Shown one piece after another: positions 19,436 to 53,413 of a DNA stretch of 64,000 nucleotides. The position numbers were made by a program, and so were the translations under genes. The notes under the pieces were generated by a model, which did no database searches, was not told where the DNA came from, and was given only the letters and a program-made list of their open reading frames with translations. Location of the stretch: the NCBI GenBank assembly GCA_020348985.1, contig CP070761.1, forward strand, positions 2,531,445 to 2,595,444, read 5' to 3'. Position 1 is the stretch's first letter; every line of letters starts with the position of its first letter. This DNA comes from Candidatus Thorarchaeota archaeon (GTDB taxonomy: Archaea > Asgardarchaeota > Thorarchaeia > Thorarchaeales > Thorarchaeaceae).

Positions 19436-21652
19436 TTATGTTCGTTTGTAGATATAACGACTCCAAGAGCTTGTAGTTGGCATCTGGACCGGCATTCCTT
19501 TTCTCTCACGTATCTCGAAGATTACCTCTTCCTGCATGTTGCCGGGCAGTGGTTCGAATCCTCTGAACTCATAACCAAAGAAACTCCTTCCGGCTGTGGC
19601 ACTCCTGAACTCATCAGCGATTCCTATGGTCTCTGCAGTGGGCAAAGTTCCCTTGATTGCCACGTTCTCTTCTTCACCCTCAATAGTGACTACTTGACCA
19701 CGGTGACCAGTCAAGACCTTGATCACACCACCTTGAGTGTCTGTAGGAGTCTTGATGTCCGTATTCAAAACTGGTTCATAGAGAGAAGGATCCGCGGTTA
19801 GGAAGCTCATATTCAAACCTGAGCTTGTCATCGTGGCAATCTCACTGTAACCAGTATGAGCAGGGTCAGTATGTACTGTAGCATCAGTTATCACTGCTTT
19901 TACACCCATAATAGGTTCACGAGCAAGCGGGCCTCCGTCGCAGAACTCGTGGAATACCGTCGTCACGTAAGGCCGTATCCTATCGAATCGCTGGACACCA
20001 CTCATCTGATCTACGAGCATATTCGACTCGTAGATGTCGAGTATCTTTCTCGCTTCCTTGGCGTCCCATCCTGCTTCATCACGCAGTATTGCTGCGCGCT
20101 CACGATCCGCCTGTGTTGCTGTGATCTTCTTCTTCCGGATGAGCTCAACTGTCTTGTCATCAAGCGGCTCGAGATAAATACGAAGCCTGTTGTGTCCGTT
20201 CGGAGACTTTGTGTGGAACTCTTCACCTCTCTGGGCAATCTTCTCACGGTACACAATGATTGGCTCGGAAACGTGTATCTTGACTTGCTCATGGATGCGC
20301 TTGGTCAGAATCTCAATCTGTAGGGGATCGATTCCGTCAAGCCGATATTCACCAGACTCCTTGTCATGGAAGAATCTTGCAGTTGGATCTGCCATAATCC
20401 ACTTTCTCACGACCTCACCTAGCTTTGCAATGTCTTGCGGATCTACGGGACTAATACTCCTGCTAACAACAGGCTCGCTCACATACTCGATTGCCTCAAA
20501 TCCTTTCATTTCAGAGCCTGGTTTAACGAAGGTCTCTCCTGATGGACACATGAAACCGAATATCGACATCAAGTTGCCAGCTGGAATCTCATCCATTGGC
20601 AGGATGTCTGTAATCTCTTGAACGCCCAATCGCTTCACACGAGCATTCTGCCTCATGTTTACAAGTGTAATCTCATCGCCTGTCTTGAGAGTACCAGAGA
20701 AGACTCGGCCAATTAGAGTTGGTCGCTTGCTCTTCGGGTCAACGAATATCTTGGTAATCATCCCTAGAAGAGGTCCATTCCTGTCACATTCGAGAAGTGC
20801 TTTTCCTTCGGGAGAATCAAGATCGCCTGACCAGATTCGTGGAATCTTGTACTTCTGGGCGTCCTTTGGATTCGGCAAGTGTTCGACAATCATCTCAAGC
20901 AAGGGCTCATCGAGTGGTAGGTTCTCTCGAAGCCACATCTCGTCTCCTTCGTTGTACTTCTCAAATACAACCACTGGCTTGATTTCCTTCTTGGCCAGAG
21001 TCTTCATTGTGAATGCCCAACCAGTCTTGGCTGAACCAATTGCAACACTTCCTTTTTCGAAGCTTACTCGCCAGTCTTGCTCGAACTCCCTCGGAGTGAC
21101 CTTCTTGATAAGCTCGTTCACCTTGGCTATGATGATATCAATTCGCTCGTAGACTTTCGCAGGTGGAAGCTTCAGCTCATTGATGAGGCGGTCAACCTTG
21201 TTGATGAACAAGACTGGCTTAGCCCCTTCCCCACCTACGGCGAGGCGGATGTTGGTCTCAGTCTGCGTCATCACACCTTCAAGAGCGTCCACCAGGATGA
21301 CTACTCCATCGCTGGCACGCAACGCTCGAGAAACTTCACCTGTGAACGACAGGTGACCGGGAGTGTCGGAAAGCTGGACCAAATACTCTTCGTCACCGAC
21401 CTCGAAGTTCAGAAGAACTACTGAGGTGAAGATTGTTATGCCCCGCTCCTGCTCTTCTTCGTCAGAATCAGTCATGAGGGCCTGTCCTGCTGCGGCATCG
21501 CTCATCAGACCTGCACGGCGCATGAGGTAGTCTGTAGTTGTCGTCTTTCCGTGATCGATGTGAGCACTGATTGAGATGATTCTCTTGTGCTCATAATCAT
21601 CACTCATGATTAGTTTCTTTATCGCGTCAGGTTCCTTGACCTTGACCATCAT
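19436..21652 (-). CDS. Elongation factor 2 homolog, probably the Asgard EF-2 paralog
   Basis: AHIDHGKTT, ERGITI, DTPGHLSF, NKVD; diphthamide loop reads DPAHTG rather than HRG; not in an S12-S7 operon. Confidence 0.85.
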   Translation of the reverse strand: MMVKVKEPDAIKKLIMSDDYEHKRIISISAHIDHGKTTTTDYLMRRAGLMSDAAAGQALMTDSDEEEQERGITIFTSVVLLNFEVGDEEYLVQLSDTPGHLSFTGEVSRALRASDGVVILVDALEGVMTQTETNIRLAVGGEGAKPVLFINKVDRLINELKLPPAKVYERIDIIIAKVNELIKKVTPREFEQDWRVSFEKGSVAIGSAKTGWAFTMKTLAKKEIKPVVVFEKYNEGDEMWLRENLPLDEPLLEMIVEHLPNPKDAQKYKIPRIWSGDLDSPEGKALLECDRNGPLLGMITKIFVDPKSKRPTLIGRVFSGTLKTGDEITLVNMRQNARVKRLGVQEITDILPMDEIPAGNLMSIFGFMCPSGETFVKPGSEMKGFEAIEYVSEPVVSRSISPVDPQDIAKLGEVVRKWIMADPTARFFHDKESGEYRLDGIDPLQIEILTKRIHEQVKIHVSEPIIVYREKIAQRGEEFHTKSPNGHNRLRIYLEPLDDKTVELIRKKKITATQADRERAAILRDEAGWDAKEARKILDIYESNMLVDQMSGVQRFDRIRPYVTTVFHEFCDGGPLAREPIMGVKAVITDATVHTDPAHTGYSEIATMTSSGLNMSFLTADPSLYEPVLNTDIKTPTDTQGGVIKVLTGHRGQVVTIEGEEENVAIKGTLPTAETIGIADEFRSATAGRSFFGYEFRGFEPLPGNMQEEVIFEIRERKGMPVQMPTTSSWSRYIYKRT

Positions 21653-22399: not shown

Positions 22400-23194
22400 T
22401 CACTTCGTGGCTACGACAACCATTCGCTCCGAGTCTCTTGAATACGGCATCCTTGGCAGCTTGTTCTGACCGTAGAATTCGATCTTCTTGAAACCAACAT
22501 CCTCGAGGAGCTCTTTGATCTCAAGTGCGGTGTACATTCGGATATCATTGTTAGACAGTGCATCTTGATTCATCAGAACGAGTCTAGAATCCTCAATGTC
22601 AATGAACGTAGCTGGACGCCCTTTCAGCATACCAGCCTGAGCATCGAGCATATGAGGCTCACTCAGGAGATAGCCACCTTCTAGCTCGGTCCAAGTCTTG
22701 GCGAAGCGAGGGACGTTGTAGGGATTGATTAGGTCTAGTAGTAGTCTCCCACCATCGACAAGAGCTTCATGTGACTTCTCCAAAACTGCCTTGTTTTCTT
22801 CGTGATCAAAGAAGCCAAAGCTATGACTCAACAAGACTGCAGCGTGGAAGTTTTCCGAGAACGTGAGGTCACGCATGTCTCCCTTGTAGAAAGTGACCTC
22901 AATCTCTTCTTCCTTTGCTCGAGAGATTGCGACGTCCACAAGACTCTGCGCAAGATCGAAACCGGTCACCTTCAGACCATTCTTAGAGAACAGGATGCTG
23001 TGGTCCCCGGCTCCGCACGCAATATCTAGTATGAACTGATTCTGTTTCAGATCAAGAACTTGAATGCAGAAATCGACAACCATCTTGTCATACTCTGCAA
23101 TACCCTGAAGAGACCTCCTATGCCGTACCCTAAAGAGCTCGGCCCAAAACTCGTCCCAACCCAGTTCATTCTTCTCTAGAGGCACGCTCCTCAC
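22400..23194 (-). CDS. Class I SAM-dependent methyltransferase
   Basis: ILDIACGAG, GDMRDL, SFGFF. Confidence 0.85.
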   Translation of the reverse strand: MRSVPLEKNELGWDEFWAELFRVRHRRSLQGIAEYDKMVVDFCIQVLDLKQNQFILDIACGAGDHSILFSKNGLKVTGFDLAQSLVDVAISRAKEEEIEVTFYKGDMRDLTFSENFHAAVLLSHSFGFFDHEENKAVLEKSHEALVDGGRLLLDLINPYNVPRFAKTWTELEGGYLLSEPHMLDAQAGMLKGRPATFIDIEDSRLVLMNQDALSNNDIRMYTALEIKELLEDVGFKKIEFYGQNKLPRMPYSRDSERMVVVATK

Positions 23195-23304: not shown

Positions 23305-23517
23305 TTAGAAGTTCTCTTCTGGTTCCTCGGAGAGCTCCTTGTCAAAGATGGACTTCCATGGGCGTACTCCATAGCAGACGACAGCAAGCGCATTTATGGT
23401 GCCGGCAAGCAGCCACAGAAAGTTAGCACTCCAGTAGAAGAACATGAAACACAATAATGTGGATATGGTACCACAAAGCAGCTCGTATCGGTACAATCGG
23501 GGCCTTTGTGTCACCAC
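23305..23517 (-). CDS. Small two-TM membrane protein
   Basis: AGAGGGGAG RBS before GTG; two hydrophobic helices; acidic tail. Confidence 0.45.
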   Translation of the reverse strand: MVTQRPRLYRYELLCGTISTLLCFMFFYWSANFLWLLAGTINALAVVCYGVRPWKSIFDKELSEEPEENF

Positions 23518-23586
23518 GAAAAACTCCCCTCTTTATGCAGCCATAGGTTACATTTGTTTCTTTCCAATAACGATAACAAAGAATAA

Positions 23587-23687
23587 GGGGGGAGACGCCC
23601 GCAAAGCTCTGTTGATCTCCGCCGGGAGGGACGTAGACTAAGGCAACAGTCGACTCAATGAGTCAAGGCATGCGGGCCTTGGTCTCC
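23587..23687 (-). ncRNA. Putative ~100-nt independently transcribed structured sRNA
   Basis: TTTATA 23718-23713 ends 25 nt before GGAGAC; ends pair (GGAGAC/GUCUCC, GCCCGCA/UGCGGGC); inner GACUC/GAGUC, CUGUUG/CAACAG, CUCC/GGAG; followed by UUAUUCUUUGUU. Confidence 0.6.
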
Positions 23688-23877
23688 AAACTGTATTACA
23701 ATCTAAACTACCTATAAATGTTCGCGTGTTGAGCAAAACCGCTGTATTTTTCGATAAATCGTCGGGTTGTTCTAATAATGCTAGTGTACAAAAATCGAGC
23801 TCAGAACTATAAGAAAAGTTACATTTTGGGTCCTGTAATGTGCCAGACCACATCGGACCACGATTGGATCTGTGTCT

Positions 23878-24528: not shown

Positions 24529-24633
24529 TGGTAGCTCCGCCAGGATTCGAACCTAGGTCCGGTGGGCCAGAACCACCGATGCTTGACCAGTGTGCGCCCA
24601 TCGAGTCATCGACAGACTCTACACCACGGAGCT
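24529..24633 (-). tRNA. tRNA-Gln(CUG) with 29-nt D-loop intron (24590-24618) and encoded CCA
   Basis: Acceptor AGCTCCG/CGGAGCT-A-CCA; anticodon arm GGTGG-TT-CTG-GC-CCACC; GGTTCGAATCC T-arm; removing the intron restores D-loop AGTGGTCAA. Confidence 0.9.
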
Positions 24634-24688: not shown

Positions 24689-25537
24689 TCAAATGCCGAC
24701 TTTGAAAATCAGGGCGTCTCTAAGAACTCGCTGAAACATTCTCAGTAGATTCTTCCCCTCAGTCGCAATGGTGTCAAAGACAGGGTATCCCTCCAGACCT
24801 AGCATTTGAAGCATGTAGTCAATCGGCAGGGCATTAGGAAGATCACGTTTGTTCAGAGAAACCACAATGGGCAGCGTTGCCATTCTGTCAGTGCCCAGAG
24901 CAATCCTGAGTTCTTGCATCGATGCGATGTTCTCGTTCATCTGTTCGGGCTGACTGTCAGCCATGAATATCAGGCCGTCGACCTCCCTCAGCACAGAAAT
25001 CCTTTGGCTGGCATGCCTTCTTTGTCCAGCCACGGTGAAAACGTCAAAGACAACCTTGTGACTAGCGGAGATAGGAACGAAGTCGAAGAATGTCGTCCGA
25101 CCTAGCTCATCATGAATCTCAACAATCTTTCCCTTGGATATAGACCTCACGTTGGCAAAGAGCCATCGCAATGCAGTTGTCTTTCCTGATAATGAAGGTC
25201 CGTAGAACACAATCTTGATGTGAATGCGACCCTCTTTGTCCCGCTTTAGGGCCCTGCCTGGTACAATCTCTGCCGCTGTCTGAGGTTCAATGTGAGCGGC
25301 CTTTGCCAAGTCTTGGGTTGCTGCTGCATCAATCTGAAGTTTCTCAGGCTCAGCTACAAGTGTACCAACAGGTGTAGGCTCTCGTCGAGTGGCTACATAA
25401 TCCGGTGGAGTGGTCAGCGGTGTAACAGTGACTTCTTCAGCTGGTGTCGAAAACTCAGGCATGGGGTCTTCTTCCGCTTCCTCCGCCTCTTTCTTGGGCT
25501 TCCTTATGCGACCTGCAAGCCTACGGAATACCGACAA
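24689..25537 (-). CDS. MglA-like small GTPase with low-complexity N-terminal extension
   Basis: KIVFYGPSLSGKTT, RTTFFDF, TVAGQ, NKRD. Confidence 0.85.
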   Translation of the reverse strand: MSVFRRLAGRIRKPKKEAEEAEEDPMPEFSTPAEEVTVTPLTTPPDYVATRREPTPVGTLVAEPEKLQIDAAATQDLAKAAHIEPQTAAEIVPGRALKRDKEGRIHIKIVFYGPSLSGKTTALRWLFANVRSISKGKIVEIHDELGRTTFFDFVPISASHKVVFDVFTVAGQRRHASQRISVLREVDGLIFMADSQPEQMNENIASMQELRIALGTDRMATLPIVVSLNKRDLPNALPIDYMLQMLGLEGYPVFDTIATEGKNLLRMFQRVLRDALIFKVGI

Positions 25538-45378: not shown

Positions 45379-45703
45379 GACTAGCTCAAATTCGTAAGTA
45401 GGAGCGGGGCTCGCCCAGCCGAAGCTGATAGTGGCGAACCGTATCCGCATCCGTGACACGCTTTCATCGGAGCATGCGAAAGAACTCAGTTCTTTATGCG
45501 CAAGTATTGGAGTGGCAATCTCGGGGAAGATGCCACAGGGGACCAATGCTTGGAAACTCGCTAGGGGGACCGTGCATTGCAGTGCGAGTTTCCATGACGG
45601 GGGGAAATCGCACATCCCGATAAGAGCAGTCAACATGAAGAGAGGCATACTGGCCTAATAACCTTACTCCCCTTCACCTAGTGGAACCGCTTGAACACTA
45701 GCC
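45379..45703. ncRNA. Large (~320 nt) highly structured intergenic element, probable ncRNA
   Basis: TGGAAACTCGC/GCGAGTTTCCA (11 bp), AAAGAACT/AGTTCTTT, GTGGCA/TGCCAC, CAGC-CGAA-GCTG, CTAGTG/CACTAG, plus end-to-end pairing. Confidence 0.55.
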
Positions 45704-53001: not shown

Positions 53002-53233
53002 ACAAGCTTTGGCTGGCCTTGTTGAAGGAGCTTGCTCTCGCTGAGTTGGCCGTGATGCTATTTAGTCTTTATTGGATTGCCCTTCTGGTTGTTGTCGGCC
53101 CTAGAGACTAGAAGCGCGACCAATAATGAGAAAACTTTCGTTGGAAGGCGCGGTATCGAGAGTATAATCCATTCATCTCGAAGGGGTTATATCAATCACA
53201 GAGAGCTGACAACTGCCGGGAGAACGTGCTGAC

Positions 53234-53413
53234 ATGCGACTGATTACTGTTAAGATGAGCGACATCTATGTGAATGGTCTTGACAAGCTAGTTGAGAGTG
53301 GCATGTACCCCTCGAGATCCGAAGCCATCAGGGTTGCGATTCGAGACCTTCTTCGAAGAGAGCTTTGGATTGATGGAGTACCAGTAATCGAAGAGTCCAA
53401 TCCAAATAGGTAG
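53234..53413 (+). CDS. Ribbon-helix-helix regulator (CdrS/CopG-like), absent from the ORF track
   Basis: MRLITVKMSDIYVNGLDKLVESGMYPSRSEAIRVAIRDLLRRELW..., 59 aa. Confidence 0.85.
   Translation: MRLITVKMSDIYVNGLDKLVESGMYPSRSEAIRVAIRDLLRRELWIDGVPVIEESNPNR

Follow-up and report, generated by a model that had tools for sequence, protein, structure and literature searches.

A Conserved Structured RNA of Thorarchaeota With an Invariant C-Rich Seed, a Candidate Trans-Acting Regulator of Translation Starts

A Structured RNA Gene Lies on the Minus Strand

The stretch of DNA analyzed here (the window) comprises 64,000 nucleotides of a Candidatus Thorarchaeota genome, and positions refer to this window unless a genome position is stated. 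On its minus strand the window contains an RNA gene of 97 nt (23687-23591, predicted ends), whose 5' end pairs with its 3' end (23687-23682 with 23596-23591, and 23677-23671 with 23603-23597). The gene is preceded by an archaeal promoter (23711-23726, minus strand), which consists of a purine-rich BRE-like stretch and the TATA box TTTATAGG at 23718-23711, and is followed by a pyrimidine/U-rich terminator-like tail (23575-23590, minus strand). The parts that a preliminary description had read at this place, namely TTTATA, a 25-nt spacer, GGAGAC...GUCUCC, CCCC, and a U-rich tail, were all found in the sequence, whereby TTTATA occupies 23718-23713 on the minus strand, GGAGAC begins at 23687, GUCUCC ends at 23591, and CCCC with the U-rich tail reaches 23575. 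The TATA box is present in 78 of 80 homologous loci, 23-27 nt 5' of the aligned RNA, and a pyrimidine tail (at least 10 of 12 pyrimidines) follows the RNA in 60 of the 80. A palindromic CGA-W4-TCG element (23752-23761) precedes the TATA box by about 35 nt; it recurs in a loose form in 54 of 80 homologous loci and might be an activator site.

The RNA has a fold energy of -41.7 kcal/mol (z -4.3), which was reached by none of 200 shuffles and is lower than that of 99.8% of 3,490 intergenic windows from the same genome. Across the homologues, covariation is seen in the closing and the second helix as well as in a conserved arm (23609-23649, minus strand), in which 23649-23644 pair with 23614-23609 and which continues with a 5-nt bulge and short upper stems. 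Two-sided changes occur at 22 of 28 modeled pairs and 90.8% of the cells pair, which is more than in all shuffles and slid controls, although the underlying alignment was fitted to a hand-drawn structure and the counts lean towards that structure. The hand-drawn structure was used in place of RNAalifold on the first MAFFT alignment, which gave only 11 pairs and misaligned the ends; one row of the fitted alignment A2 (L138) proved to belong to a sibling RNA. G-U combinations clearly outnumber A-C combinations in the alignment (196 vs. 59), and this fixes the strand of the RNA as the minus strand. A side hairpin GACUC/GAGUC (23652-23664, minus strand) is of variable length and missing in some homologues; it reaches at least 4 bp in 69 of 81 alignment rows and lies outside the covariation model.

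Four of five helices that had been proposed as perfectly Watson-Crick paired (closing, second, side hairpin, and arm) are borne out, but the fifth, CUCC/GGAG, is not. It is absent from the minimum-energy fold, can be fully formed in only 52 of 81 rows, and has no two-sided change, whereby three of its four pairs are broken 10-12 times: CUCC stays invariant while GGAG varies without compensation. A 15-nt pyrimidine internal loop could not be confirmed either. For the apex, a short stem that leaves CCUCCC exposed in its loop is better supported and is possible in 74 of 80 homologues; this stem is nearly invariant and hence also unproven. The proposed three-way junction is common among the homologues but not universal.

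The RNA Is Single-Copy and Syntenic Across the Thorarchaeota Family

Homologues were detected by BLASTN across the Thorarchaeota family, and a covariance model matched a single locus in each of 80 of the family's 86 genomes, which comprise all 16 genera and 23 of 23 high-quality genomes. The source genome likewise has a single copy, whereas a genome of the same genus (G001) contains an apparent paralogue with side hairpin and seed (L168:1439-1541, plus strand). No match to this model (R1) was obtained in 125 other Asgard genomes; since R1 also missed a sister-family orthologue (genome G037, see below), this negative result is limited to what R1 can detect. In a GTDB-wide pattern scan, all model-confirmed matches fell into archaeal records, mostly named Thorarchaeota.

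The neighborhood is stable, with an MglA-like GTPase, tRNA-Gln, and creatininase upstream, and a class I SAM methyltransferase (22400-23194, minus strand; Pfam Methyltransf_25) and an EF-2-like GTPase (19436-21652, minus strand) downstream. The methyltransferase is no predicted target, and the EF-2-like gene, which scores below the aEF-2 cut-off, serves as a synteny marker. The MglA-like GTPase (24689-25537, minus strand) has a long low-complexity N-terminus. The tRNA-Gln(CUG) gene (24529-24633, minus strand) has a D-loop intron of about 30 nt and was missed by ARAGORN on the window and mis-called Leu on the genome. Elsewhere in the window (45380-45700, minus strand) lies another structured intergenic RNA, which has C-rich stretches and is devoid of the seed described below.

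Directly downstream of the element, a 70-aa membrane-type ORF (23305-23517, minus strand) is a local insertion, with no homologue in the other 80 loci and no Pfam match. The element is thus not merely the 5' UTR of this ORF, which occurs only in this genome. It could also have been the leader or riboswitch of the conserved genes behind it, since the methyltransferase follows within 1.5 kb in 71 of 76 loci and the EF-2-like gene comes next. We regard this as very improbable: the gap to the methyltransferase ranges from 38 to 990 nt and takes up unrelated insertions such as the 70-aa ORF, five loci have no methyltransferase nearby, the RNA ends in its own pyrimidine tail, a TATA-like word stands 5' of the methyltransferase in 53 of 71 loci, and the G037 RNA is oriented away from the EF-2-like gene. 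Furthermore, no complement of the seed was found in the gap between RNA and methyltransferase. A MITE with target-site duplications does not fit, since the element is single-copy in fixed synteny and no flanking duplication was seen. Because the TATA box and the pyrimidine tail recur, the helices covary, and the RNA is single-copy in 80 of 86 genomes, the existence of a structured stand-alone RNA gene is hardly in doubt.

An Invariant Seed Is Complementary to Translation Starts

The preliminary description had recognized the RNA gene but not its functional clue, which is an invariant seed complementary to mRNA leaders. This apical seed, CCUCCCGGC(G), is part of the segment CCCUCCCGGCGG (23619-23630, minus strand) that is complementary to the leader boxes. 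Its 9-nt core CCUCCCGGC is identical in 80 of 80 homologues and in the one sibling row, and CCUCCC (23629-23624) is predicted to be 79-98% unpaired. In this genome there are 12 exact copies of the 9-mer, half of which lie between genes, and it is also seen at syntenic positions of five further genomes, whereby orientation divides the sites: the G-rich sense is found at translation starts and the C-rich sense in small RNAs. A standard start codon follows only 3 of the 12 exact boxes of this genome, compared to 9% of all NNN-GGGAGG sites.

The seed complement overlies the ribosome-binding region of three conserved genes, which encode an 88-aa protein, a TPR protein, and a thioredoxin-like redoxin located before nrdD. 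The 88-aa gene (genome 309475-309738) is present in 67 of 86 genomes, and its leader contains CCGGGAGG in 64 of 64 and GCCGGGAGG in 62 of 64 cases. Here the box usually sits in a hairpin loop and ends about 11 nt before the AUG; the distribution of distances between GGAGG and AUG in this genome has its peak at 7-11 nt. The TPR leader has the box in 29 of 29 cases, and the redoxin leader has the exact box in 26 of 30; of the remaining four leaders, three retain GCCGGGAG, and the change in the other is compatible with a G-U pair. Depending on the lineage, the redoxin box coincides either with the Shine-Dalgarno (SD) sequence or with the first codons. An apparent non-AUG start (AUU, ACG, CUG, or AUA; L187:1211-1489, minus strand, and L326-L355) was noted for the redoxin gene in many genomes, in some of them with an in-frame stop just 5' of it. 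Within the window, the 8-nt seed complement GCCGGGAG also lies at 53215-53222 (plus strand) in the leader of a 59-aa ribbon-helix-helix-like gene (53234-53413); CCGGGAG is kept in only 8 of 30 orthologous leaders, and a lineage-specific target is possible.

In order to judge this conservation, three groups of SD-bearing orthologues were used as controls. In these, the four bases 5' of GGAGG agree in 30-42% of members, compared to 100% for the 88-aa and TPR genes. When the starts of 2,907 genes of this genome are ranked, the 88-aa gene comes first and the TPR gene second; the ranking is partly circular since the targets were found by motif search. The predicted net gain of binding is modest (-3 to -9 kcal/mol), and the leader hairpins of the 88-aa and TPR genes bury the last GG of the SD.

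The 88-aa protein (L183:1526-1792, plus strand) is 67-89% identical across the family and has distant homologues in other Asgard groups; in a small sample of four non-Thorarchaeales homologues the box was absent upstream of the gene. The protein has no match in Pfam or NCBIfam. Its structure model (pLDDT 79) is of the alpha-beta-alpha type; a fold match to Med17 (best Z 8.0) is within the range of common arrangements, and a HicA-like appearance was not borne out by the listed matches.

RNA and Leader Change Together

RNA and 88-aa leader are each conserved over the stretch in which they are complementary, namely 12 positions from -2 to +9, and conservation decays outside it. Duplexes of 11-14 bp are formed by RNA and leader of the same genome in 58 of 61 genomes. 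Within the family, neither side of the 9-nt core varies, so that covariation of the core is impossible there. Compensations at the edges are few, namely three U-A in one clade and two A-U (p about 0.01-0.02, uncorrected and with non-independent kin), the advantage of the cognate over the whole duplex has p = 0.065 within the family, and two leaders have an uncompensated G-to-A change.

A clearer case is provided by the sister-family genome G037, which contains a syntenic orthologue of the RNA. This orthologue is 65 nt long, neighbors the EF-2-like and creatininase genes, and has a TATA box, paired ends, a side hairpin, a U tail, and a z of -5.1. The box is also present in the leader of the 88-aa orthologue of G037. 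All three variable duplex positions are changed on both sides (C-G to G-C once, G-C to A-U twice) and three further pairs are gained, so that the cognate duplex comprises 15 Watson-Crick pairs; crossed combinations of RNA and leader with the family give 9 bp in 59 of 64 and 79 of 80 cases. The G037 RNA was found by a 9-mer search, so that the core was selected by the search and the six flanking pairs are the independent part, and the strong covariation rests on this single outgroup genome. A fourth seed-type site of G037 (L547, G037:C48:45726) is intergenic and hairpin-rich. Overall, these comparisons suggest that the RNA very probably pairs with the 88-aa leader.

A second RNA family shares the seed. 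It forms a rod of about 65-70 nt with a U-rich tail, has the same seed in 30 of the 30 best matches, is syntenic in 28 of 30 (L505-L534; e.g., L505, G005:C46:6957-7047, minus strand), and was matched in up to 59 of 86 genomes, a few of which are cross-hits. The end-paired rod and the arm helix are partly shared between both families. In the search of the 86 genomes the sibling was not found in the genus of the source genome. At -2 the sibling has a U, which is a better partner for the A that the TPR and redoxin boxes have at +9; the sibling may thus be the main regulator of these two genes, and the constraint on some leaders could stem from this same-seed RNA. The genome studied here yielded no sibling, and its TPR leader has a G at +9 that matches the 97-nt RNA, which is a single case.

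It might be argued that the shared word is a double-stranded DNA site of one protein, located within the RNA gene and close to several promoters, and that the complementarity only reflects its two strands. A single DNA motif would also produce matching boundaries and could drift jointly within a genome, and the 88-aa promoter is indeed operator-rich, being flanked by repeated CGTKTAC words. We consider such a site quite improbable, as the orientation is strict, with the C-rich sense in two RNA families and the G-rich sense in three mRNAs, and as the box follows the start codon and not the promoter (TATA 58-67 nt upstream compared to about 40 nt, in two targets). Moreover, the word sits in covarying RNA hairpins, and leaders show 23 C-to-U changes, which keep a G-U pair, versus 5 G-to-A changes, a weak signal in which edge positions dominate.

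The RNA Does Not Fall Into a Known Class

A search of Rfam 15 yielded nothing at the gathering score in the window and nothing over the element at E ≤ 10. An uncatalogued structured RNA, as had been presumed, thus agrees with the Rfam result as well as with promoter, tail, covariation, and copy number. The reported lack of tRNA and C/D-box motifs also holds: ARAGORN and Rfam were negative over the element, a T-loop word occurs in only 16 of 81 rows, box C (RUGAUGA) in none of 81, and CUGA in 24 of 81, at unconserved places. An ACA near the 3' end, as in H/ACA RNAs, was seen in only 7 of 81 rows, and an internal ACA is paired and covaries. A conserved tandem GA (K-turn/K-loop) was not found in the alignment, a SECIS motif is not conserved among the homologues, and no reading frame for a small peptide inside the RNA is conserved. 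The RsaE/RoxS family proper was rejected as there is no Rfam match.

A loose resemblance to vault and Y RNAs had been pointed out, and the RNA could accordingly be a protein-tethering scaffold, with the invariant loop as protein site and an incidental complementarity to leaders. The size and the long stem joining the 5' and 3' ends are indeed Y-like (10.1101/312249), and single-copy, near-universal retention has a housekeeping look. Nevertheless, we find a scaffold hardly credible. The Ro60/Rsr (TROVE) gene was found in 0 of 86 genomes, with controls detected in two known carriers, and the 5' strand motif GNCGAAN0-1G, which we take to be the Ro60-binding motif of Y RNA, occurs in 0 of 81 rows. 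Major vault protein matched 0 of 86 genomes, whereby no positive-control genome was matched either, and a vault internal box B-like motif was found in 0 of 81 rows. Unlike Y RNAs, the RNA has no tRNA-like domain and is conserved at the apex instead of the closing stem, and a scaffold leaves the three conserved complementary boxes and their joint change with the RNA unexplained.

Mimicry or descent from a housekeeping RNA can be regarded as largely refuted and retains next to no probability. The idea of a reduced SRP RNA arose because no SRP RNA match exists in the assembly of this genome. Yet 35 of 36 relatives have a full SRP RNA elsewhere in the genome, and at genome 2781409-2781508, where a close relative has SRP RNA, the assembly has a gap; most rRNA is likewise unassembled here. 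The symmetric loop of SRP helix 8 (CAGG/AGCA type) occurs in 1 of 81 rows. An antisense partner in helix 8 was rejected, as helix 8 varies and the seed does not; in Thorarchaeota SRP RNA (L053-L069) helix 8 often has a UGGC tetraloop instead of GNRA. Matches to 16S, 23S, 5S, SRP, and RNase P RNA are of chance length or unconserved; those to 16S rRNA measure 8-9 nt, which is chance length, and the invariant CC stays unpaired in rRNA matches. In some relatives the last 12 nt of tRNA-Asn are identical to the seed segment, but the seed core is present in only 5 of 10 tRNA-Asn genes read and absent from that of this genome. The tRNA-Asn(GUU) genes (L157, L171, L296-L325; genome 1354698) have at least one intron, at varying places (anticodon, T-loop, D-loop).

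A Proposed Model for Seed-Mediated Control of Translation

The gene, its strand, the stems, the invariant seed, the conserved boxes, and the joint change are based on comparison of homologues; expression, physical pairing, repression as the outcome, and any help by LSm proteins are what we infer from them. On this basis we favor, with a probability of about two thirds, a trans-acting small RNA that masks SD sites within a regulon of several RNAs and several targets, whereby repression as the outcome of pairing is held to be probable to the same degree. The RNA would be transcribed from its own TATA promoter, and the end-paired rod would probably shield it from nucleases and display CCUCCC in the apical loop. 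The loop would then make its first contact with the G-rich box (C)CGCCGGGAGG, which target mRNAs have where translation begins and which often lies in a hairpin loop. The weak apical stem would melt to give a duplex of 11-15 bp over the SD GGAGG or the first codons, which would block 30S loading and possibly accelerate decay. The main target would be the 88-aa gene, with the TPR gene and the thioredoxin-like gene before nrdD as further targets. As the predicted binding gains are modest, a chaperone may be needed; each genome has three LSm genes, and assigning them this role is a guess. There are precedents for such a mode of action, since an unpaired UCCC of RsaE blocks initiation (PMC2790875) and sRNA162 of Methanosarcina mazei has been proposed to mask a ribosome-binding site (PMC3510493).

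If pairing is real, it might also serve another end than repression, for example to guide a nuclease or modifying enzyme, to stabilize the mRNA, to load ribosomes, e.g., at the non-AUG starts of the redoxin gene, or to have the leaders soak up the RNA as sponges. For a small RNA seed, a pairing of 11-15 bp is long and fixed; the conserved rod and arm helix, partly present in the sibling, would suit a protein handle; no standard start follows the redoxin box in many genomes; and the RNA would open leader hairpins that bury the last GG of the SD. We think these outcomes, taken together, rather unlikely, because in each of the three targets the duplex lies over GGAGG itself or over the first codons, the arrangement seen in known repressors, because the analysis turned up no partner protein, and because the neighboring methyltransferase is a generic class I enzyme. 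In a bolder version of the regulon, several structurally distinct small RNAs would share one seed, read a dedicated, co-evolving box in many mRNAs, and guide a protein effector, such as LSm, a nuclease, or a ribosome adaptor. This is a speculative proposal and in our estimation an unlikely one; if true, it would mean that Thorarchaeales, close prokaryotic relatives of eukaryotes, follow a logic resembling that of microRNA seeds.

In its presumed way of working, the RNA is like the C-rich-box small RNAs of Firmicutes and LhrC, yet it is a member of none of those families. In Staphylococcus aureus, several RNAs, including RsaE/RoxS and the RNAIII loops, share a UCCC motif (PMC2790875). The Thorarchaeota RNA likewise has a conserved C-rich motif, unpaired by computation, and complementarity to the ribosome-binding regions of trans-encoded mRNAs was found as well, so that the result to be expected is repressed initiation. 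In contrast to RsaE/RoxS, it is archaeal and fully end-paired, has no relationship in sequence or Rfam, and uses one long seed (9 invariant, 11-15 paired positions) for which the targets have a dedicated box. LhrC1-5 of Listeria monocytogenes are multicopy small RNAs whose CU-rich sites impede translation of a target mRNA (PMC4132741). Sibling RNAs are thus common to both systems and the Thorarchaeota pair shares one seed, but the LhrC copies are near-identical with three redundant sites each (PMC4132741), whereas the Thorarchaeota families (97 nt and about 65-70 nt) differ in structure, lie at separate loci, and have one identical seed each. With sRNA162 the RNA shares the archaeal origin, action in trans, and a pairing over the ribosome-binding site, which is a prediction in our case. 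sRNA162 pairs via an unstructured linker (PMC3510493), whereas the Thorarchaeota RNA would use an apical loop on a rod, and unlike sRNA162 it is kept across a family and its sister family with several conserved targets.

In the literature searched, the coverage of which is incomplete, we found neither a description of regulatory small RNAs in Asgard archaea nor a published account of this RNA. Archaeal small RNAs with known targets are few and mostly narrow in range. The RNA described here is retained in a family and its sister family and has named candidate targets and a co-evolving duplex of 12-15 bp, so that post-transcriptional control in an uncultured Asgard lineage becomes testable in vitro and with heterologous reporters. 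The 88-aa candidate target is a highly conserved protein outside the Pfam and NCBIfam families. As the redoxin gene heads the anaerobic ribonucleotide reductase operon, this target would link the RNA to dNTP supply. Besides the three conserved genes, the genome contains further seed-complementary sites: one at genome 1270837 (minus strand) lies before an ORF for a zinc-ribbon-like product of 72 aa, one is an inexact match preceding a gene for 590 aa, one is located in a hairpin and recurs in G005, and two have no classification, whereby the sites other than the first lie at genome 2756809 (plus strand), 2357557, 2217379, and 1410010.
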